Positions 25,836 to 33,256 of a DNA stretch of 45,532 bases are shown one piece after another. The stretch lies in contig SVOU01000001.1 in NCBI GenBank assembly GCA_015066215.1, positions 1 to 45,532 of the forward strand. Direction: 5' to 3'. This DNA comes from Oscillospiraceae bacterium (GTDB taxonomy: Bacteria; Bacillota; Clostridia; Oscillospirales; Acutalibacteraceae). The notes under the pieces are model-generated. The model had not been told where the DNA came from. It did no database searches and saw nothing but the letters and a program-made list of their open reading frames with translations. Position 1 is the stretch's first letter. Each line of letters begins with the position of its first letter. A program made the translations under genes and the position numbers.

Positions 25836-26201
25836 ATGGATCGCAAGCACAACCCACAACTTACGGCAACGGCGCGTGCGCTACGCAAAAATATGACCAA
25901 AGAGGAACGCCGTCTTTGGTTTGCGTTTTTACACACCTATCCTGTGCGTTTTTTACGTCAAAAGGTTATCGACGGATATGTGGTCGATTTTTATTGTCAC
26001 CAAGCACGCCTTGTGCTTGAACTTGACGGCTCACAACATTTTTCGGAAGAGGGCTTGCTGAAAGACCGCGTGCGCACGGAAAAGATAGAAGATCGCAATC
26101 TGACTGTTGTGCGCATAGCCAATAGCGATGTTCATCAGCATTTCGACGAGGTCTGTGCCTATATAGACCGTTTGGTAAAAGAATCACTCGCAGAAAAATA
26201 A
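25836..26201 (+). CDS. DUF559 (Vsr-like endonuclease fold) domain protein
   Basis: 121 aa from ATG 25836: ARALRKNMTKEERRLWFAFLHTYPVRFLRQKVIDGYVVDFYCHQARLVLELDGSQH...NLTVVRIANSDV matches the DUF559 pattern. G+C is visibly lower than in the neighbours. Confidence 0.75.
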   Translation: MDRKHNPQLTATARALRKNMTKEERRLWFAFLHTYPVRFLRQKVIDGYVVDFYCHQARLVLELDGSQHFSEEGLLKDRVRTEKIEDRNLTVVRIANSDVHQHFDEVCAYIDRLVKESLAEK

Positions 26202-26210
26202 GCCTTTTGG

Positions 26211-26354
26211 CCCCCTTGCCTAAAGGGGGCGGGCAGCCGCAAGGCTGACTGGGGGATATGGTTTCTATATACCACCGACACCAAACCGTCTGCGTGATTT
26301 TGGAATCCCTCCACCAACCTAACGGTTGGTCCCCCTCCCTTTAGGCAAGGGAGG
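26211..26354 (+). repeat. Intergenic repeat block R5
   Basis: Inverted partial hairpin-2 copy CCCCCTTGCCTAAAGGGGG (26211-26229) plus a full double-hairpin module at 26307-26354 (ACCAACC/GGTTGGT and CCTCCCTT/AAGGGAGG). Confidence 0.75.
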
Positions 26355-26406
26355 TAAAGGGTGCGTCATTTTTGCTTATCAATATTTTTCAAAGGAGGTG
26401 GTTGCG

Positions 26407-28245
26407 ATGCAGGATAATCCGAAGCTCAAAGAACTGCGGCAACAGGCGATGCGGTTGCCGCTGACGCCCGGGGTATATATTATGAAAAACGCCCACGGGG
26501 ATATTATCTATATCGGCAAGGCAAAGGCGCTTAAAAACCGCGTGAGCCAATATTTCGGCGCCGACACCAACCACTCCGAAAAGGTGCGGCAGATGGTGCG
26601 GCACGTTGACCGCTTTGAATATATTCTGGTGGACAGCGAATTTGAGGCGCTGGTGCTGGAATGTTCGCTCATCAAGCAACACCAACCGAAATACAACATC
26701 TTACTTAAAGATGACAAGGGCTATTGTTACGTGCGCATCTCTCCCCCGCCTTATTCGCGTATTCACGAGTGCAAAAAGCAGGAAAAGGACGGCGCGAAAT
26801 ATCTCGGTCCGTATTTGAGCGCGTTTGTGGTCAAGCAATCGGTGGACGAGGCGTGCAAGGCGTTTGCGCTGGCGACCTGCGGGCGCAGCTTCGCCTATGG
26901 CAAGCCGAATGGGCGTCCGTGTCTTAACCACTATATCGGTCAATGCTGTGCGCCTTGCACGGGCAAGGTGCGCGAAGCGGACTATGCCGAGCGGGTGGCG
27001 GAGGCGGTGGAGCTATTGACCGCGGGCGCGTCCGAGATGGTCGCGTCACTTACCCGCCGTATGGAAGAGGCGGCGGAAAATCTGGCGTTTGAAAAAGCCG
27101 CCCGCTTGCGCGACCGCATCGCCGCGATACGGCGTATGCAGGCGAGGCAGACGGTGGTACAGTCCCCCATCCCCCATCAGGACGTGGTCGCGCTGGTGCA
27201 AAGCGGCGACAAGGTATGCGCAGAGGTGTTCCGCTTTGTGGGCGGGCAGCTCATTGACCGCGAGGAATTTATCTTTGAGCCTGACGGTGATATGACCGCC
27301 ACGCGCAGTGAGTTTTTGCGCCGCTATTACAGTATGCGTGACGGTGTGCCGCCGCGCGTGACGATTGACGGCACGGTGGAGGATGCGGAAGTATTTGCCG
27401 CGTGGCTGTCCGAAAAAGCGGGACGGCAGGTGAAACTGCACCGCCCGCAACGCGGCGAGCAGGTGCGGCTGTTGGAGTTGTGCCGCCAGAACGCCGCCGA
27501 GCATCTGGCGTCGCGGCTGGGACTTGGCGGGCGTGAAAGTGCTACGCTGGATGAGCTGGGACGCTTGTTGGGGCTGGCGACGCCACCTGCGTATATTGAG
27601 TGCTATGATATTTCCAACCAAAACGGCACCGATACGGTGGCGGGTATGGTGGTGTATGAAAACGGCAAGCCGCAAAAAAGTGCCTATCGGCGGTTTGCTA
27701 TTCAGTCGGTGGTCGGGCAGGACGACTATGCCGCGATGCAAGAGGTGTTGCGGCGGCGGTTTGCGGAATATGCCGTCCACAAGGACGAAAACGAGGGCTT
27801 TGGGCGGTTGCCCGACGTCATTTTCCTCGACGGCGGCGAAGGGCATCTACACGCGGGACAGCAAGTGCTGGATGAGCTGGGCATCACCGTACCGCTGTTT
27901 GGTTTGGTGAAGGATAACCGCCACCGCACGCGGGCAATTACCGCGCATCGCGGCGAGATCGCCATTCAGTCGAAGCGGGCGGTATTTACGCTTTTGTCGG
28001 ATATACAGGAAGAGGTGCACCGCTTTGCGATTGGCTATCACCGTAAAAAGCGGAAAAAGAGCAGTATCCAAACGACGCTGACCGCTATTCCGACGATTGG
28101 GGCGGTGCGCGCGAAGGAGTTGCTCAAACGCTTCGGCTCGCTCAAAGCGATCCGCGAGGCGACTGCACAGGAGCTGCTTACCGTCAAGGGGATGACCCAA
28201 CCCGCGGTGGACAGCCTGCTCGCTTGGTTTGCCGAACATCCGTGA
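26407..28245 (+). CDS. uvrC: Excinuclease ABC subunit C
   Basis: 612 aa from ATG 26407 (AAAGGAGG SD). GIY-YIG domain PGVYIMKNAHGDIIYIGKAKALKNRVSQYF, a UVR-domain stretch (FEKAARLRDRIAAI), and a C-terminal (HhH)2. Confidence 0.95.
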   Translation: MQDNPKLKELRQQAMRLPLTPGVYIMKNAHGDIIYIGKAKALKNRVSQYFGADTNHSEKVRQMVRHVDRFEYILVDSEFEALVLECSLIKQHQPKYNILLKDDKGYCYVRISPPPYSRIHECKKQEKDGAKYLGPYLSAFVVKQSVDEACKAFALATCGRSFAYGKPNGRPCLNHYIGQCCAPCTGKVREADYAERVAEAVELLTAGASEMVASLTRRMEEAAENLAFEKAARLRDRIAAIRRMQARQTVVQSPIPHQDVVALVQSGDKVCAEVFRFVGGQLIDREEFIFEPDGDMTATRSEFLRRYYSMRDGVPPRVTIDGTVEDAEVFAAWLSEKAGRQVKLHRPQRGEQVRLLELCRQNAAEHLASRLGLGGRESATLDELGRLLGLATPPAYIECYDISNQNGTDTVAGMVVYENGKPQKSAYRRFAIQSVVGQDDYAAMQEVLRRRFAEYAVHKDENEGFGRLPDVIFLDGGEGHLHAGQQVLDELGITVPLFGLVKDNRHRTRAITAHRGEIAIQSKRAVFTLLSDIQEEVHRFAIGYHRKKRKKSSIQTTLTAIPTIGAVRAKELLKRFGSLKAIREATAQELLTVKGMTQPAVDSLLAWFAEHP

Positions 28246-28252
28246 CCGTTTT

Positions 28253-28296
28253 CCCTATATAGCCGCTTTTGCGGCTATATAGGGAATTTTTGTTTT
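28253..28296 (+). terminator. Intrinsic terminator after uvrC
   Basis: 14-bp stem CCCTATATAGCCGC / GCGGCTATATAGGG, loop TTTT, then AATTTTTGTTTT. Confidence 0.85.
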
Positions 28297-28301
28297 GGGC
28301 G

Positions 28302-28330
28302 TTGACAATTTGAGAAGAATAGAGTATAAT
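28302..28330 (+). promoter_or_regulatory. Consensus sigma-A promoter of tRNA-Pro
   Basis: TTGACA (28302-28307), a 17-nt spacer, then TATAAT (28325-28330), about 20 nt before the tRNA 5' end. Confidence 0.8.
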
Positions 28331-28349
28331 AAGCAGGCTGTGAACAGTT

Positions 28350-28426
28350 CGGGGTGTAGCTCAGTTTGGTAGAGCGCTTGGTTCGGGACCAAGAGGCCAT
28401 GGGTTCAAGTCCCGTCACTCCGACCA
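28350..28426 (+). tRNA. tRNA-Pro (anticodon CGG), CCA encoded
   Basis: Hand-folded cloverleaf. Acceptor CGGGGTG/CACTCCG, D arm GCTC/GAGC, anticodon arm CTTGG-TTCGGGA-CCAAG (anticodon CGG), T arm ATGGG-TTCAAGT-CCCGT, discriminator A plus CCA. Confidence 0.9.
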
Positions 28427-28427
28427 A

Positions 28428-28463
28428 AACAACCGACCACCATTCGGTGGTCGGTTGTTTTTT
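28428..28463 (+). terminator. Intrinsic terminator directly after tRNA-Pro
   Basis: 14-bp stem AACAACCGACCACC / GGTGGTCGGTTGTT, loop ATTC, then TTTT. Confidence 0.85.
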
Positions 28464-28780
28464 GTTGCAGCGATGGATTTGTGCCGGTTGCTTTGTGTCC
28501 CGAACCAAGGGTGAGGGACCAGGTGACGGAGCCGAGCGCGTCCGGTGGACGGTACAGCGAGGCGGAGGAAGCGCGAAACAAGGAGCATCGACCGCGACTG
28601 CGTGGCGAGGCGACTATGTTTTCGCGCGGTAGCCATGGGTTCAAGGTTTCCTTGAACCCTATGAGGGCGCGGGGCGTGAAGAAAAACAGTCCGGTGGACT
28701 GTTTTTTAGCCGCGCGGTGCGCAGGCGGGAACCGCGCAAACGCGGTCGCCAAGCACGGCTGATTTGCAACGCAAAGCAGC
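28430..28780 (+). mobile_element. 351-bp non-coding insert bounded by a 21-bp duplication of the tRNA-Pro 3' end (integrated-element remnant or small element)
   Basis: Flanked by GTCCCGTCACTCCGACCAAAA at 28409-28429 and 28781-28801. It contains tRNA-Pro fragments (14 nt at 28632-28645 match 28396-28409; 28497-28509 is the reverse complement of 28377-28389), a perfect hairpin at 28637-28659 and two terminators. No convincing ORF. Confidence 0.4.
28685..28707 (+). terminator. Terminator-like hairpin inside the insert
   Basis: AACAGTCC-GGT-GGACTGTT followed by TTTT and preceded by an A-run (potentially bidirectional). Confidence 0.6.
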
Positions 28781-28801
28781 GTCCCGTCACTCCGACCAAA
28801 A
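28781..28801 (+). repeat. Second copy of the tRNA-Pro 3' end (att-like direct repeat)
   Basis: 21/21 identity with 28409-28429 (T-loop end, T stem 3' half, acceptor 3' half, ACCA, AAA). Confidence 0.9.
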
Positions 28802-28867
28802 GAAAAAGACTGCACACTCGGGCAGTCTTTTTGTTATCCTTATTTTTACAGCACCAGAGAGGGGGCG
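28802..28867 (+). repeat. Orphan copy of the ferritin terminator plus ferritin 3' end (duplicate of 30255-30323)
   Basis: 28825-28845 is identical to 30280-30300 and 28846-28867 is identical to 30302-30323, with a single 1-nt indel between them. The preceding terminator hairpin (28803-28832) has the same design as 30257-30287, with a compensatory stem change. Confidence 0.85.
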
Positions 28868-28886
28868 AACACGGTTTTGGGGGCTC

Positions 28887-28914
28887 TTGTTTTTTGCTTT
28901 GTTTCTGTTATAAT
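28887..28914 (+). promoter_or_regulatory. Candidate promoter of the NERD gene (extended -10)
   Basis: TTGTTT (28887-28892), a 16-nt spacer, then TGTTATAAT with TATAAT at 28909-28914. This is only about 13 nt before ATG 28928, so a very short leader or leaderless mRNA is implied. Confidence 0.4.
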
Positions 28915-28927
28915 AACATTGACTACT

Positions 28928-30250
28928 ATGGCAAAAGGGGCGTTTTCTTTGGATGTGAAAAAGGTTTATCAGCAACTAACCGGCGTAGATATTGATCAAC
29001 AATCTCGTCTGTGGGACGAGCGCGGCAAAGGTTATTACGGTGAATACTTGGTTTTTTGTCATCTATATCAGCACATTGCCGGCAACGGAAAAATCCTCAT
29101 GAATCTACAAATCCCTACCGCAAATGGAAAGTCAACAGAAGTCGATTTGGTGTTGATTCATGAAACAGGAATATATGTGTTCGAAATCAAACATTACAAG
29201 GGGACAATCTACGGAAAAGATACCGATTCAGCGTGGACACAATATTTTCGTACCACTCAAAACCATTCTTTCCAAAACCCCTTCATTCAAAACGCTTATC
29301 ACATTGATGCCCTGCGCAAACTCTTTCCACAGTTGCCTATCTATTCCTGCGTTGTTTTTACCAATCCCGAATGTGATATTCGCGTGCTGCACACCAATCC
29401 AAACGTCGACATTTGCGCCCTCCCGTATATGTTGTCGGTACTTTCTAATCGATTTGCGAACGCTTGTCAATGTATTTCCATGGAACAGATCGACGCGGCA
29501 TTTTCTCAGTTGTCCGTCTATTCTCAAATGCAAGCTCCTGTAACTATCAACGCACAAGAAACGAGTTTTTTGGCTTGGATACAACCAACCATCAACAGCC
29601 TGACAGAAAAGCGGCAAGAATTGGAACAAGAACGGCAATCACTACTTTTTCAACGGGAAAAAGCAAAGAAAATAAGGCGCACCAGCGTTTTAGTAAGTGT
29701 GCTTGCTACCATCTGCGCCGTTGCAATGCTGGCATTTGTTGCATTTGGCATCGTCCACAAATATCAACTAGACGCTGATCGCCTTGTACAGGAAAGTGCT
29801 GCCGAACTCAATCAAATGAAAAACAACTTTTTACACATTGATCAGATAGACAACGAATATATCGACACTTTGCATTCCTACGTCGAGGTTTCCAACGAGT
29901 CGATACTGCCCTTAACCGATGACGCCGTTTCTTTTTCTGCACGTGTTGCAATGAAAAATGACACCTATGGTATTGCCTTTACAGAAAAATCAAAATATAT
30001 CGTACATACAACAGCGGGAAAAGTTTATGAATATGATGTTTTCGGGGAACACTTGAAATATAGCCGATTTGCTAATATGATCGGAAAAGGTATTCGAAGC
30101 TATGGTGATTTGAAGGCAGTCCAATTTTATGGTATCTCCGACACAGAAATGGTTTCTTATGTTAAAATCACCGGTGTTGAGTTGTTTTTACTGGACATTC
30201 ACCGAACAATTGTAAAAGATAATTTGGAGATCGAATTGTACGCGCCGTAA
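28928..30250 (+). CDS. NERD (nuclease-related domain) protein with a TM anchor and an unknown C-terminal domain
   Basis: NERD pattern GYYGEYLVFCHL...STEVDLVLIHETGIYVFEIKHYKGTIYG...WTQY...FQNPFIQNAYHIDALRKL, then a coiled-coil-like EKRQELEQERQSLLFQREKAKKIRR. One TM (SVLVSVLATICAVAMLAFVAFGIV) is followed by about 160 aa of unknown function. Start uncertain: ATG 28928 has no SD; TTG 28949 is an alternative. G+C is roughly 35-40% against about 60% or more in the flanks. Confidence 0.8.
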   Translation: MAKGAFSLDVKKVYQQLTGVDIDQQSRLWDERGKGYYGEYLVFCHLYQHIAGNGKILMNLQIPTANGKSTEVDLVLIHETGIYVFEIKHYKGTIYGKDTDSAWTQYFRTTQNHSFQNPFIQNAYHIDALRKLFPQLPIYSCVVFTNPECDIRVLHTNPNVDICALPYMLSVLSNRFANACQCISMEQIDAAFSQLSVYSQMQAPVTINAQETSFLAWIQPTINSLTEKRQELEQERQSLLFQREKAKKIRRTSVLVSVLATICAVAMLAFVAFGIVHKYQLDADRLVQESAAELNQMKNNFLHIDQIDNEYIDTLHSYVEVSNESILPLTDDAVSFSARVAMKNDTYGIAFTEKSKYIVHTTAGKVYEYDVFGEHLKYSRFANMIGKGIRSYGDLKAVQFYGISDTEMVSYVKITGVELFLLDIHRTIVKDNLEIELYAP

Positions 30251-30256
30251 GGGCAT

Positions 30257-30287
30257 AAAAAAAGACCGCCTTGTGGGCGGTCTTTTT
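30257..30287. terminator. Bidirectional terminator between the NERD gene and ferritin
   Basis: AAAAAAA-GACCGCC-TTGTG-GGCGGTC-TTTTT, lying between convergent genes. Confidence 0.85.
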
Positions 30288-30301
30288 GTTATCCTTATTT
30301 C

Positions 30302-30814
30302 TTACAGCACCAGAGAGGGGGCGGAATAGACGCGGGCGGCAAGCTCTTGGTTGAGCATATAGAGGCTCTTGGGGTCGCTGCCGAACAGCTCCATTTTGGT
30401 GATGAGGTCGTTGGCGTTGGTCTCCTCTTCGCCTTGCTCCTTCACGAACCAATCAAGGAACTGCATTGTGCGGAAATCCTTGACTTCATACGCGGCGGCG
30501 TAGATGTCGTTGATGAGCGAGGTGACGTATTCCTCGTGCTCTAAACCTGCTTTGAGGACGTCCATATGGCAGGAAAACTCTTTGTCGGGTTTGGCGATCG
30601 CATCGAGGGTGACCTTTTGGTTTTCGTTTTGCAGATACTGATAAAACAGCATCGCGTGGTCGCGCTCTTCTTGCGCCTGGATCTTATACCAATTGGCGAA
30701 GCCGTCGAGGCCTTTGTCCTCGAAATAGTTGGAGAAATCGAGATAGAGATAGGCGGAATAAAATTCTTTGTTGATCTGCTGATTGAGCAGGTCGCGGACT
30801 TTTTGGTTCATCAT
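30302..30814 (-). CDS. ftnA: Non-haem ferritin
   Basis: 170 aa. INKEFYSAYLYLDFSNYF...WYKIQAQEERDHAMLFYQYL...EHEEYVT gives the ferroxidase-centre residues of bacterial ferritin. Confidence 0.9.
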   Translation of the reverse strand: MMNQKVRDLLNQQINKEFYSAYLYLDFSNYFEDKGLDGFANWYKIQAQEERDHAMLFYQYLQNENQKVTLDAIAKPDKEFSCHMDVLKAGLEHEEYVTSLINDIYAAAYEVKDFRTMQFLDWFVKEQGEEETNANDLITKMELFGSDPKSLYMLNQELAARVYSAPSLVL

Positions 30815-30850
30815 TATGTATGACCTCCTTTTGTGATTTGACAGGGCGAT

Positions 30851-31159
30851 TTAGTTTTCCAGCATAGCCAGAATGTGCTCTTTGGGGCGCGCGCCGACCG
30901 TTTGGTTGGCGATCTTGCCGTCTTTGAGGACGACGAGCATCGGGATGCTCACCACACCGAAGGCTTGCGCCAGCTCGGGTTCTTCATCCACGTTGATCTT
31001 GCCGACGAGATATTGCGGGTTTTCGGCGGCGATCTCATCGACGAGCGGGGACACCATTTGGCACGGACCGCACCAATCGGCATAAAAATCGAGAAGGACG
31101 GGCTTTGTATCGCTTGCGACCTGCTCGAAGTTTTGTTTGTTGACACGAATAACAGCCAT
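30851..31159 (-). CDS. trxA: Thioredoxin
   Basis: WCGPC active site (LLDFYADWCGPCQMVSP). I prefer ATG 31159 (MAVIRV..., 6 nt after GGAAG) over the track start at 31165, which abuts the SD. Confidence 0.92.
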   Translation of the reverse strand: MAVIRVNKQNFEQVASDTKPVLLDFYADWCGPCQMVSPLVDEIAAENPQYLVGKINVDEEPELAQAFGVVSIPMLVVLKDGKIANQTVGARPKEHILAMLEN

Positions 31160-31236
31160 TGTCATCTTCCTTTCTTGGTTGTTATCTTTATTATAACCCG
31201 TCCGTGCGAAATTTTCTATAAGAAAATGTTAATTTT

Positions 31237-31887
31237 TTATTTCAGCTTTTTGAGCTTGGCGGTGTCGGCGATGACGATAAGCTGCATACCGCTTTCCAGC
31301 GGCATCGTGGGATCTATCGTGGTGCTAATCTTATCCGCCTTGCGCAGTGCCACCACATTGATGGCATATTTTTGGCGCAAGCCCAATTCGATCAAGGTTT
31401 TGCCCACCCAATCGGGCTTGACCTGCATATCGACCATCGACACCTCGTCGGACAGTTCGATCATCTCGGAAAAGCCCGCGGACAGCAGATTTCTGGCAAG
31501 GCGAACACCCGATTCTTTTTCAGGGAAGATAACTTTATCGGCACCCACGCGGCTCAATATCTTTTGGTGCATTTCGCTGCCGCATTTGACGATGACCGTT
31601 TCGACCCCCAACTCTTTGCAAAGGGTGACCGCCATCACACAGGCTTCCAGGTGGTTTGCCATAGCGACAACCACCACGTCCATATTGCCGATGCCCAACC
31701 GTTTCATAGTTTCAAGGTCAGTGATATCGGCACATTTGCACACGGGGATGGTTTCGGCGGCGCGGTTGACGTTGCCTTGATCGATATCCACCGCCAACAC
31801 CTCGGCACCGTTGTTGATCAGTTCCTCGGCGACGGCTTGACCGTATCTGCCGAGCCCCAGTACGGCGTACGTTTTATAAATACTCAT
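31237..31887 (-). CDS. ktrA: Trk/Ktr potassium uptake system, NAD-binding peripheral subunit
   Basis: 216 aa with Rossmann YAVLGLGRYGQAVAEEL and RCK_N/RCK_C organisation. It lies 16 nt after the membrane subunit gene, with an AAGGAG SD. Confidence 0.85.
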   Translation of the reverse strand: MSIYKTYAVLGLGRYGQAVAEELINNGAEVLAVDIDQGNVNRAAETIPVCKCADITDLETMKRLGIGNMDVVVVAMANHLEACVMAVTLCKELGVETVIVKCGSEMHQKILSRVGADKVIFPEKESGVRLARNLLSAGFSEMIELSDEVSMVDMQVKPDWVGKTLIELGLRQKYAINVVALRKADKISTTIDPTMPLESGMQLIVIADTAKLKKLK

Positions 31888-31903
31888 AGATACTTCTCCT
31901 TTC

Positions 31904-33256
31904 TTATCCTACGCTGATCTCTTCGGTCGGATCTTTGATGCCGTTGGGATTGCTTCGGTGGCGATTGAACGCAATTGCCAAGGAAATGGGGCCCACACGG
32001 CCCAGATACATCGTCGCAATGATGATATATTTGCCGGCAGTAGACAGCGTGGCAGTCAAATTGCGCGTAAGCCCCACGGTGGCTGTGGCACTGACGGTTT
32101 CATACAGCACGTCCAGTGCAGGCGCGTCGGTGACAGCGGCGAGGGCTACCGTTGATATGAACAGAATGGCAAAGGACGTTCCTGCGACGGCAACGGCTTT
32201 GCCGACCGCTTGCTTTGTCAGCCGTCTGCCAAACAATGCGGTGTCCTCTTGGCCGCGAATCGACGACAACGCTGACGCGATGATCGTCACAAAGGTGACC
32301 GTTTTGATGCCGCCTGCGGTACCGACGGGCGAGCCACCGACAAACATCAGCAGCAGACAGGTCAGCGCGGATGCGTTGGTCAGATGCTCCTGCGGCACGG
32401 TGGCAAAGCCTGCGGTACGGGTGGTCACCGACTGAAAGAGTGCCACCTCTATTTTTTGCGGCAAGGTATAGGCGCCGATGGTTTGCGGATTGTTATATTC
32501 AAACGCCAAGATGAGTGCCGCGCCCACCAAAATGAGAGCGAGGGTGGCGGTGATGGCTATTTTGCTGTGCAGGGTGAGATGGCGAAACCACCACCCTTTT
32601 TTGCGGCGCGCCAATCGGCACGCACGCGGTACGTCCCACCAAACGATATAGCCGATGCCGCCCACGATGATAAGCGCACAGGTGACGGCGTTGACCACAG
32701 GATTTAAGGCGTAGTTGTACAGGCTGTTTTCGGCGATGATATCGATGCCCGCGTTGCAAAAGGCAGAAACGGCGGTGAACACCGACACCCAAACACCTTT
32801 AAGCCCCATTTCGGGGACGAATACCGTCATATACAGAAGTGCGCCGACACCCTCGACAAGCAACGTGCCGAGCACCACTTTTTTTACGAGCCGTACCAAC
32901 CCCGCAAGGGAGTTGAGATTGAAGGCATCCTGCAAAAGCAGGCGGTCACCGATACCCATTTTGCGATGTAAAAGGCTCATCACTGCCGACATAATGGTGA
33001 TGACACCCAGCCCACCGATCTGGATGAGCAACAGGATAACGACGTGACCAAACGTACTCCACGCGGTGACGGTGGGCGTCACCACCAGACCCGTTACGCA
33101 GGTGGAGGTGGTGGCGGTGAAAAGCGCGTCGGTAAAGGAGGTCGATTTGCCGTCAGCCGCGCTGATCGGCAGCATCAGCAACAACGTACCGAGCAGGATG
33201 ACGATCAAAAAGCTGAGCAGAATGATATGGGTGGTCGACAGGCGTTGCGTTTTCAC
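31904..33256 (-). CDS. ktrB: TrkH/KtrB family potassium uptake membrane subunit
   Basis: 450 aa, GTG start with an AAGGAGGGG SD. Polytopic, with repeated selectivity-filter-like segments (TCVTGL, FCNAGID, TRTAGFAT, TVGLT). Confidence 0.85.
   Translation of the reverse strand: MKTQRLSTTHIILLSFLIVILLGTLLLMLPISAADGKSTSFTDALFTATTSTCVTGLVVTPTVTAWSTFGHVVILLLIQIGGLGVITIMSAVMSLLHRKMGIGDRLLLQDAFNLNSLAGLVRLVKKVVLGTLLVEGVGALLYMTVFVPEMGLKGVWVSVFTAVSAFCNAGIDIIAENSLYNYALNPVVNAVTCALIIVGGIGYIVWWDVPRACRLARRKKGWWFRHLTLHSKIAITATLALILVGAALILAFEYNNPQTIGAYTLPQKIEVALFQSVTTRTAGFATVPQEHLTNASALTCLLLMFVGGSPVGTAGGIKTVTFVTIIASALSSIRGQEDTALFGRRLTKQAVGKAVAVAGTSFAILFISTVALAAVTDAPALDVLYETVSATATVGLTRNLTATLSTAGKYIIIATMYLGRVGPISLAIAFNRHRSNPNGIKDPTEEISVG

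Follow-up and report, generated by a model that had tools for sequence, protein, structure and literature searches.

A NERD-domain gene islet in the strain-variable interval between tRNA-Pro and ferritin of an uncultured gut Clostridia bacterium

Genes, repeats and terminators between uvrC and ferritin

The 45.5-kb stretch of DNA analysed here (the window) contains a NERD-domain gene between a tRNA-Pro(CGG) gene and a ferritin gene. The features of this interval are as follows.

26407-28245, + strand: uvrC, the conserved left flank of the hotspot (ORF and Pfam architecture; 98.3% nucleotide identity to the NERD-less strain L180 as far as 28429)
28350-28426, + strand: intact tRNA-Pro(CGG) gene (ARAGORN; Rfam RF00005, 67 bits)
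28430-28780, no strand: segment X, a GC-rich (0.61) non-coding remnant of 351 bp, missing in L180-L182
28781-28801, + strand: orphan 3' end of tRNA-Pro, an attR-like scar (21/21 with 28409-28429; blastn-short E = 1e-8)
28803-28832, no strand: left bidirectional terminator hairpin, stem GACTGC/GCAGTC (-15.9 kcal/mol on the + strand, -13.3 on the - strand; z -4.7)
28825-28867, no strand: left (orphan) repeat copy, made up of the 3' arm of the terminator, 13 nt of spacer and the stop codon of ferritin with its last 19 coding nucleotides (28846-28867)
28868-30258, + strand: NERD islet, 1391 bp, GC 0.412, with an extended -10 element, TGTTATAAT, at 28906-28914
28928-30250, + strand: gene for a NERD-domain protein of 440 aa (Pfam PF08378, residues 34-145, E = 2.2e-25)
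30259-30287, no strand: right bidirectional terminator hairpin, stem GACCGCC/GGCGGTC (-22.4 kcal/mol; z -5.8)
30280-30323, no strand: right repeat copy, the genuine ferritin 3' end (ORF, repeat search and string comparison)
30302-30814, - strand: ferritin gene, the conserved right flank (Pfam PF00210, E = 7e-38; intact ORF)

The NERD protein belongs to the PF08378 family, scoring 89.7 bits against a cut-off of 22.1. Its AlphaFold model (pLDDT 84) predicts an N-terminal NERD nuclease-like domain, a long helix (residues 214-300) with a hydrophobic stretch in it, and a beta-sandwich at the C terminus, and Foldseek matches the model to Bax1 and ApaG-like folds. The protein has 514 homologues and, among the matches listed, most cover at least 98% of the query. 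The gene differs from its counterpart in strain L188 at 31 nucleotides (7, 3 and 21 at the first, second and third codon positions) and is under purifying selection. No component of a known defence system is matched over its full length in PADLOC or NCBIfam; PglW, MkoA and MAD6 match at the level of the NERD domain only, with 30 to 35 bits versus cut-offs of 460 to 990. In phages and plasmids, too, the family has only domain-level matches. No repeats flank the NERD homologues at two loci elsewhere (L091, L092).

The composition of the gene is foreign to its surroundings: the coding sequence has a GC content of 0.414 and a GC3 of 0.42, compared with means of 0.575 (sd 0.044) and 0.70 (sd 0.096) for the 26 long ORFs of the window. 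An earlier note, made from the sequence alone, had described an AT-rich, one-gene segment with its own promoter-type element, and these values and the extended -10 element, only 13 nt from the ATG, bear it out. The absence of transposase, recombinase and terminal inverted repeats, also claimed there, holds as well. The islet contains no ORF besides the NERD gene, hence no transposase; the repeat search found no terminal inverted repeats and no inverted repeat linking its ends; and neither recombinase nor transposase occurs among the neighbours within ~6 kb (Pfam matches precomputed for the genes called). The stretch 28866-28896 weakly resembles (71%) the post-tRNA terminator at 28434-28464, mainly through a shared T-run.

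The islet is flanked by a direct repeat whose coordinates the earlier note had given correctly to the base. By direct string comparison, 28825-28845 equals 30280-30300 (21/21, GTCTTTTTGTTATCCTTATTT) and 28846-28867 equals 30302-30323 (22/22, TTACAGCACCAGAGAGGGGGCG), the sole break being one additional C at 30301 in the right copy. The right copy consists of the final six codons (APSLVL) and stop of the ferritin ORF together with spacer and terminator arm, which makes it the genuine gene end and the left copy the orphan, as the note had proposed. The 44-nt core as a whole (terminator arm, spacer and ferritin tail) reads TCTTTTTGTTATCCTTATTTCTTACAGCACCAGAGAGGGGGCG. In L188 the left copy retains the C and has two substitutions in its ferritin-derived part; the ancestral identity block was therefore exactly 44/44, and the orphan copy is decaying. 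The spacer, GTTATCCTTATTT(C), is common to both copies and departs from that of L180 at 4 of 14 positions, so over this stretch the copies are each other's closest relatives. In the repeat search the match widens to 28820-28845 / 30275-30300 (25/26), and leftward of the exact block the copies agree in just 19 of 29 aligned columns.

This repeat could be a generic multi-copy terminator, a REP or MITE-like element that came to lie on both sides by chance, since both copies are joined to intrinsic-terminator hairpins of the same design. However, half of it is ferritin coding sequence. Only two copies occur in 45.5 kb: a search with a 43-nt pattern and up to 3 mismatches found no further ungapped copy in the window (0.00 expected by chance). 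The other loci compared lack the non-coding part of the repeat, a second ferritin 3' end comparable to the orphan is absent from the other ferritin loci of the GTDB scan (L011-L090), and neither repeat nor core matches any IMG/VR contig. The generic-element reading, which the earlier note had named as a way for its own account to fail, is effectively refuted and retains only a very slight chance.

The terminators preceding the two copies share an A-tract/hairpin/T-tract design, as the note had it. The stems GACTGC/GCAGTC and GACCGCC/GGCGGTC establish that the claimed difference of a T-A pair on the left and a C-G pair on the right is real. The left-hairpin allele reads AAAAAGACTGCACACTCGGGCAGTCTTTTT, and its A-tract, CAAAAGAAAAAGAC, is identical to that of L180. 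The right terminator is common to the NERD and ferritin genes and is orthologous to the single terminator of L180. Each hairpin has been inherited as an intact self-complementary unit, as expected of two alleles of one terminator. A crossover within the hairpin loop was rejected, as both hairpins are perfectly self-complementary yet mutually different.

The tRNA-Pro side and the comparison of strains

The tRNA-Pro gene is preceded by a perfect TTGACA-17-TATAAT promoter (28302-28330, 12/12 in the promoter scan) and followed by segment X. Two hairpins lie in this segment, a terminator at 28426-28461 and a second, terminator-like one at ~28681-28707. So do two tRNA fragments: an inverted copy of the anticodon arm (28497-28509, 13/13) and a direct copy of the 5' side of the T-arm (28632-28645, 14/14), with blastn-short E values of 6e-4 and 1.6e-4. 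tRNA alone is matched among Rfam families in 27800-31300, and segment X matches none. Beyond it, 28781-28801 aligns at 100% to the tRNA end of L180. Read together with the L180-like A-tract, 28781-28867 is a fossil of the uninterrupted tRNA/terminator/ferritin junction, preserving the ancestral layout that the earlier note had postulated.

Two phage contigs unrelated to the window (L200 and L202) carry exact 45-nt and 26-nt fragments of the tRNA-Pro 3' end adjoining PF00589 integrases, and tRNA-Pro is therefore a real attachment site. No integrase adjoins the tRNA or att site within the window. A 47-aa ORF after the tRNA-Pro of L175 resembled integrase N-termini to us; it was not called as an integrase, having no match in Pfam, NCBIfam, PHROGs, PDB sequences or phage genomes.

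The conspecific strains L180-L183 have the flanks in common with the window (nucleotide identity 98.3% towards uvrC and 96.6-96.7% towards ferritin). The NERD gene is missing from them, and a different AT-rich insert of 1487 bp (38.5% GC) extends from tRNA-Pro to the ferritin terminator. The interval is therefore polymorphic among strains, with alternative cargo, as the earlier note's reading had led one to expect. Homology to the NERD-less strains ends at 28429, the tRNA end, and restarts at 30259, the same point in the terminator A-tract at which the L180 cargo ends; the NERD/right-terminator side thus resembles an ordinary hotspot allele. Segment X and the tRNA 3' copy are likewise missing in the sister strains, so that relative to them the inserted DNA is 28430-30258 (1829 bp) and requires at least two events. 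The insertion of a foreign cassette proposed by the note is supported, every check that it had suggested having turned out in its favour, but its account had overlooked the tRNA-Pro 3' duplication and the 351 bp at 28430-28780. A third strain, L188, also has both the NERD gene and the decaying orphan copy. Three lineages (window, L180 and L175) have three different sequences past the tRNA, and the hotspot is linked no less closely to tRNA-Pro than to ferritin. A candidate fragment of the tRNA, at the far end of the L180 insert, was rejected as not significant, with 593 of 2000 shuffles scoring equally well.

Ferritin is 86-98% identical at the amino acid level across the 80 loci returned by the GTDB genome scan. 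The ferritin-trx-trkA flank is mosaic among three conspecific strains, with identities of 88-100% per 500 nt, lower in the 2 kb nearest the islet and at least 99% beyond, which points to repeated homologous imports. None of the alleles examined is a truly empty site or a NERD-terminator-ferritin donor allele free of the orphan. Among the 80 ferritin loci only L011 shows synteny, on a contig ending 5 nt past the ferritin stop, and a scan of JGI metagenomes with UvrC returned only relatives at most 62% identical, none of them with a tRNA in the 600 nt downstream of uvrC. Exact-protein look-ups with ferritin and UvrC returned only NERD-bearing contigs. The contigs of relatives with 95% and 91% identical UvrC stop in or just past the tRNA, and those with 97-98% identical Trx stop inside ferritin.

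Such breaks, together with the origin of the window in a metagenome-assembled genome, could suggest a chimeric contig or a mis-joined repeat. Against this, more than 16 contigs from several JGI and ENA samples, assembled independently and with different assemblers, show the identical structure, a separately assembled 95%-identical strain has the same layout, as does a SPAdes contig of a diverged strain, and the 44-bp repeat is shorter than the k of 141 indicated by the k141_ contig names. From the recurrence in these contigs, the SPAdes contig included, the structure is not an assembly artefact; we regard that explanation as the least credible of all.

Routes to the ferritin-side repeat

The NERD islet (28868-30258) is a single-gene islet that was acquired horizontally and is kept by selection; the hotspot in which it lies, between tRNA-Pro(CGG) and the ferritin terminator, varies among strains. 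We tentatively favour the view that the ferritin-side repeat arose by homology-anchored insertion with one illegitimate join. The type of recombination is the part that we infer. The incoming DNA would have been another hotspot allele, ordered NERD-terminator-ferritin. Recombination would have been anchored by homology in the highly conserved ferritin end, with the other side closed via one non-homologous join at 28867/28868. A linear fragment could have entered by homology-facilitated illegitimate recombination or, in an equivalent scheme, an illegitimately circularised fragment by RecA-mediated Campbell insertion. The resident ferritin tail, terminator and older tRNA attR scar (28781-28867) would have been displaced upstream as an orphan, and a dedicated recombinase would be unnecessary.

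Several observations fit this proposal. The conservation of ferritin and its mosaic flank provide a homology anchor on one side of the insert, and the left copy is contiguous with a native-looking junction, comprising the 21/21 tRNA 3' end and the A-tract identical to that of L180. The similarity of the copies ends at 28867/28868, where microhomology could be read only against a donor sequence. Homology-facilitated illegitimate recombination occurs rarely where measured (PMC5361080). Also counted against the proposal are the failure to find a donor allele or a truly empty site and the abrupt left end of the 44-nt block, such as an att identity block would give: one indel in 44 columns versus 10 differences in 29 columns (Fisher p = 3e-4). 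Differences between true alleles (L180 and the right copy), however, are equally clustered, with 4 of 14 positions in the spacer.

The same sharp boundary and the exact 44/44 ancestral identity are what recommend site-specific integration, which we consider possible but unlikely, and less probable than homology-anchored insertion. Here an attP carrying the ferritin 3' end and a terminator arm would have integrated so that the 44-bp core was duplicated as attL and attR; the element would later have shed all but NERD, leaving a structure like a cis-mobilisable element (CIME), or a minimal cassette would have been moved in trans by an integrase encoded elsewhere. The core covers a gene 3' end, the usual location for integrative elements. 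PF00589 integrases demonstrably target the neighbouring tRNA-Pro (L200, L202), tRNA att scars lie in the window itself, and tandem accretion of decayed att-flanked elements at the 3' ends of target genes is documented (PMC5704250). However, none of the alleles, and none of the other GTDB ferritin loci, was found to have an integrase at or close to the ferritin end; among the 144 ORFs downstream of ferritin at those other loci, the 25 most frequent Pfam families include no integrase family. The core is absent from the viral contigs of IMG/VR, and other species have no second copy of the ferritin tail. As the islet holds only a promoter, one gene and a shared terminator, a larger element would need to have been deleted almost exactly to both att sites. 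The right-copy hairpin, moreover, is orthologous to the native L180 hairpin, which suits the capture of a host allele better than the evolution of an attP.

A third possibility is that slippage or unequal crossing-over first duplicated the terminator and ferritin tail locally and that NERD was inserted between the copies later. The shared spacer GTTATCCTTATTT(C), in which the copies are each other's closest relatives, agrees with this. Yet two independent events landing at the same few bases would be required, a bare tandem duplication is seen in no strain, and the NERD segment abuts both copies exactly. We consider this order of events improbable. More speculative again is the idea that the 44-bp core is a functional attachment site and that the tRNA-Pro/ferritin interval docks minimal, recombinase-free, promoter-bearing AT-rich cassettes such as NERD, which would be inserted and exchanged there. 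The integrase would act in trans from elsewhere, perhaps from tRNA-Pro-targeting phages in the same community, and the arrangement would resemble an integron without a resident integrase.

Known systems and the meaning of the locus

Homology-anchored insertion, as favoured here, has a parallel in the orphan 3'-end arrays of Rhs, CDI and T6SS effector-immunity loci, for which homology-facilitated illegitimate recombination is the proposed origin (PMC5361080). In both cases a conserved gene body serves as the homology anchor, a new 3' end arrives with cargo and the old 3' end is orphaned downstream. At the present locus, however, the replacement 3' end of ferritin is identical and the host protein is therefore unchanged; the NERD cargo is independent and convergently transcribed rather than a toxin tip with an immunity gene, and there has been one round only.

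CIMEs, and the tandem accretion of decayed ICEs and IMEs at the 3' ends of target genes, are reviewed in PMC5704250. Like a CIME, the islet is short cargo devoid of integration and transfer genes and bounded by direct repeats (43/44 nt, 28825-28867 and 30280-30323) that include the target-gene 3' end; the right copy completes ferritin (APSLVL and stop) and leaves its ORF intact. It also stands in tandem with the decayed remnant X at a neighbouring att site, with strain-variable content. The differences are that no integrase-bearing parent or second site using the core was found, that the islet has a single gene, and that the hairpin adjacent to the repeat resembles the host allele rather than an element arm. 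No integrase-bearing element occupies the same att site among the allele neighbours, the top families of the 144 ORFs or IMG/VR.

The upstream part of the interval resembles tRNA-targeting genomic islands and prophages. The 3' end of tRNA-Pro recurs downstream of the intact gene as an exact 21-nt copy, together with two more tRNA fragments, the content directly past the tRNA differs between the window, L180-type and L175-type strains, and phages carry tRNA-Pro fragments beside integrases (L200, L202). The NERD islet, in contrast, is bounded by ferritin-tail repeats, no integrase is left in the window, and the L180 insert shows no recognisable fragment of the tRNA at its far end. The compact one-gene unit ending in a hairpin-containing repeat, with alternative cargo in other strains, also recalls an integron cassette. 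However, the NERD gene is equipped with a promoter of its own, part of the repeat is host coding sequence instead of an attC site, the unit is single and forms no array, and no tyrosine-recombinase domain occurs among the neighbours within ~6 kb. A transposon or insertion sequence fits no better, there being no transposase, no inverted repeats joining the ends and a duplication of 44 bp.

As other cargo occupies this position in sister strains, the locus is a gene-insertion hotspot of an ordinary and well-documented kind. The NERD islet is a small, clean example of an accessory, possibly defence-related gene entering a core-gene interval in uncultured gut Clostridia. The former junction survives there as a fossil, an alternative allele is present in conspecific strains, and phage attP sites match the neighbouring tRNA. 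Should the repeat prove to work as an att site, it would delimit a mobilisable cassette of very small size; should it be a scar of recombination, it would show that genes as highly conserved as ferritin can anchor cargo exchange by homology. Under either reading, the locus adds detail to known biology rather than opening a new question.

Ferritin-tail repeat and its terminators

The NERD islet, a foreign AT-rich segment (28868-30258) between tRNA-Pro(CGG) and ferritin, is bordered by two copies of the ferritin tail. The features of the locus are as follows.

28350-28426: tRNA-Pro(CGG)
28497-28509: inverted copy of the tRNA-Pro anticodon arm (13/13)
28632-28645: direct copy of the 5' side of the tRNA-Pro T-arm (14/14)
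28803-28832: left bidirectional intrinsic-terminator hairpin (-15.9 kcal/mol; stem GACTGC/GCAGTC)
28906-28914: extended -10 element TGTTATAAT, before the NERD gene
28928-30250: NERD gene, 440 aa, with the NERD domain at residues 34-145 (PF08378, E = 2e-25)
30259-30287: right bidirectional intrinsic-terminator hairpin (-22.4 kcal/mol; stem GACCGCC/GGCGGTC)
30302..30814, minus strand: ferritin ORF (PF00210, E = 7e-38)

String comparison agrees to the base with the two-block repeat described in an earlier note on this DNA: 28825-28845 is identical to 30280-30300 (21/21) and 28846-28867 to 30302-30323 (22/22), with a single additional C at 30301. A repeat search extends the first block four bases leftward with one mismatch (25/26; 28820-28845 and 30275-30300). 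As the note had claimed, the right copy is the genuine ferritin end, comprising the stop codon and final six codons (APSLVL) of the PF00210 ORF, while the left copy is an orphan, an ORF scan having found no ORF of at least 40 aa ending at its stop codon. Each copy starts within its terminator hairpin. The two hairpins, read in the note as terminators of the same design, both fold far better than shuffles, and their stems show that the T-A versus C-G difference noted between them is correct. More than 16 contigs, drawn from different samples, share the layout at 99.95-100% nucleotide identity; it is therefore no assembly artefact.

A generic repeated element was rejected. The search for further copies proposed in the note returned no third ungapped copy in the window (none is expected by chance), no comparable second ferritin tail among the other ferritin loci of the GTDB genome scan, and no occurrence of either repeat half or the left hairpin in IMG/VR; the non-coding part was likewise not found in any other locus compared at that stage. 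The neighbours of ferritin in other species are ordinary genes, most commonly ZIP transporters, and no integrase family is among the 25 most frequent families of the 144 ORFs downstream of it. The ferritin protein is 86-98% identical across 80 GTDB-scan loci without conservation of the surrounding gene order, and the gene (30302-30814) has a GC content of 0.51 against a window mean of 0.57, a combination suggestive of unusually strong constraint or else of frequent horizontal exchange. In relatives, contigs often end within this gene.

The tRNA-Pro side

The tRNA-Pro 3' end, GTCCCGTCACTCCGACCAAAA, is also duplicated: 28409-28429 equals 28781-28801 (21/21). The second copy immediately precedes the left terminator, and the two tRNA scraps listed above lie between it and tRNA-Pro. 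The earlier note overlooked both the duplication and the scraps. The 87 bp of 28781-28867, which lie between a 351-bp segment (28430-28780) on their left and the NERD islet on their right, thus run from the tRNA 3' end through the bidirectional terminator to the ferritin tail. This is the ancestral layout of tRNA, terminator and ferritin, which had been inferred in the note and is preserved here as a fossil.

The 351-bp segment is GC-rich, non-coding and missing from sister strains. It holds three tRNA-Pro scraps, one of them inverted, plus two terminator hairpins. A perfect 9-bp hairpin at 28637-28659 (GGGTTCAAG-gtttc-CTTGAACCC) is built of the T-arm fragment, and the CCGACCA end of the tRNA is repeated in the stem of the post-tRNA hairpin; the segment gives the impression of an att-site graveyard. 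A terminator-like stretch of 33 nt (28682-28714) is a 97% match to positions 5598-5630 of L041, which lie upstream of the ferritin gene of an Oscillospiraceae MAG that is unrelated; the match could be chance or a common terminator module.

Three IMG/VR contigs match the 3' end of tRNA-Pro exactly over 26 nt. The phage contig L200 (IMGVR_UViG_3300024268_002441), from JGI sample 3300024268, which also contains the window species (L192), carries in order a GH25 endolysin, a 45-nt exact match to 28382-28426, a hairpin and a 315-aa tyrosine integrase (PF00589, E = 4e-25). The 45-nt match is no complete tRNA, and the layout is the classical lysis, attP, int arrangement. On a second phage contig, L202, a 364-aa integrase adjoins the exact 26-nt fragment. 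Both integrases are of the tyrosine type (the regions with tRNA fragment and integrase are 2609-3708 in L200 and 4978-6213 in L202), the L200 endolysin is a GH25-dockerin protein, and the two contigs are likely temperate phages of the window species or its relatives. The tRNA-Pro side is a genuine integrase target and, since these phage contigs carry tRNA-Pro fragments beside integrases, the 351-bp segment with its tRNA scraps is probably a scar left by at least one such integration.

Alleles of the hotspot and origin of the repeat

Every contig encoding an identical ferritin or UvrC carries NERD. Scaffolds without it (L180-L183) were reached via thioredoxin homologues, and share the window's gene order (trkH - trkA - trx - ferritin ... 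tRNA-Pro - uvrC). Their nucleotide identity of 98.3% over 26384-28429 and 96.6% over 30259-32000 shows that they are conspecific with the window strain. Homology ends exactly at 28429, the tRNA end, and restarts at the ferritin terminator's A-tract (30259). In place of the window sequence stands a 1487-bp insert of 38.5% GC with a 53-aa ORF, a 218-aa lipoprotein-like ORF, a short ORF and ~480 bp of non-coding sequence; this insert lacks a ferritin-tail repeat, and its far end shows no significant tRNA fragment. The site therefore shows both the presence/absence polymorphism and the alternative cargo that the note had proposed looking for. A relative with 91% UvrC identity (L175) has a third allele: a different hairpin and then an ORF (MASVCPNVKDGKIISYKIKVFLGRDDNGKQIFRCKTW...) follow tRNA-Pro at 2385-2652, where the contig ends, and this ORF has no match in Pfam, NCBIfam, PHROGs, PDB or phage genomes. 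L188 (95.4% nucleotide identity), the third conspecific strain, carries NERD as well as the orphan, inside which its contig begins (TGTTATCCTTATTTCTTACAGCACCAGAGAGTGAGCGG...). The orphan retains the C there, so the ancestral repeat was 44/44; with two substitutions in the part derived from ferritin, it is drifting.

Over ferritin, trx and trkA (30324-32300), the window's identity to L188 and L180 ranges from 88% to 100% per 500 nt, and is at least 99% beyond this stretch in the same three conspecific strains; the flank is a recombination mosaic adjoining the hotspot. The DUF559-uvrC interval is another small variable spot (26000-26400 versus L180 12440-13255): L180 has ~550 extra bases, including a second, 87%-identical copy of 26205-26365, and DUF559 is called at 121 or 126 aa depending on the contig.

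A transposase-type target duplication is ruled out, in agreement with the note, by the 44-bp repeat length and by the lack of a transposase and of terminal inverted repeats. An integron is ruled out by the lack of IntI and by the NERD gene's own promoter. Crossover in the hairpin loop is also ruled out: the hairpins are perfectly self-complementary yet unlike each other, so each was inherited whole.

The note left site-specific and homology-assisted insertion side by side, and both readings stand. We tentatively favour the second, at somewhat under an even chance: the NERD allele may be a chimera of two hotspot alleles formed by homology-anchored uptake. The resident allele would have been tRNA, 351-bp segment, tRNA scar, terminator, ferritin, and the incoming DNA another hotspot allele (... 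NERD - terminator - ferritin ...). Uptake would be anchored via homology within ferritin and the other side sealed by a single illegitimate join at 28867/28868, with no recombinase required. In support of this, the NERD/terminator boundary (30258/30259) is the same point as the L180 cargo/terminator boundary, the hairpin of L180 and the right hairpin are orthologous (2 differences), and the left copy retains the L180-type A-tract and tRNA scar. Further, ferritin is an exceptionally conserved anchor, the flank mosaic (88-100% per 500 nt) has its lower identities in the 2 kb closest to the islet, and no recombinase was found. Orphan 3' ends at Rhs, CDI and T6SS loci have been proposed to arise by such anchored recombination (PMC5361080).

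The less probable reading, and a rather unlikely one, is that an integrase-type event recombined a 44-bp att core and that the element later decayed to a remnant like a cis-mobilizable element (CIME; PMC5704250). The exact block is sharp-edged (1 indel in 44 columns versus 10 differences in 29, p = 3e-4), the repeat is placed over the 3' end of a gene, and there is integrase activity at the neighbouring tRNA-Pro. However, real alleles are equally clustered, L180 and the right copy showing 4/14 differences in the spacer, and neither a parent element nor an integrase nor a second site was found. A simple tree accommodates all three observed hairpin/spacer combinations, so the mosaic is no proof of crossover inside the repeat. 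That the 44-bp core is the att of a recombinase-free cassette dock seems highly improbable.

The NERD gene and its product

NERD is the sole gene between the repeat copies and, as the note had it, has its own promoter element. Its composition is clearly atypical (GC 0.414 and GC3 0.42, versus means of 0.575 ± 0.044 and 0.70 ± 0.096 for the window's 26 long ORFs), bearing out the AT-richness described earlier. The gap between the TATAAT -10 (28909-28914) and the ATG at 28928 is only 13 nt and no Shine-Dalgarno sequence is visible in 28906-28930; the mRNA may be nearly leaderless. The window and L188 genes differ at 31 nt (7/3/21 by codon position) with 10 amino-acid changes, a pattern that points to purifying selection.

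The protein has 514 homologues; the next best is only 59% identical, and those listed, most of which span at least 98% of the query, come from Clostridia and Ruminococcaceae MAGs. The contexts examined are unrelated, one homologue (L091) lying between secG and a radical-SAM gene and others (L092-L094) beside ArdA, a DNA methylase and DUF4314. None of these has flanking repeats, and they are GC-poorer than their surroundings (0.30 vs 0.40, 0.34 vs 0.45). In an AlphaFold model (pLDDT 84), a nuclease-like alpha/beta domain at the N terminus is followed by a very long helix (214-300), part of which is hydrophobic, and by a beta-sandwich at the C terminus; Foldseek matches are to Bax1 endonuclease and ApaG-like sandwiches. 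PADLOC and NCBIfam gave NERD-domain-level matches only, to PglW, MkoA and MAD6.

These results support the acquisition proposed in the earlier note and extend it: a tRNA-linked hotspot holds a horizontally acquired, strain-variable single-gene islet, next to which the tail of the neighbouring gene persists as a displaced orphan copy. This is a known kind of system, not a new one, and its cargo may plausibly act in defence or in the sensing of nucleic acids.
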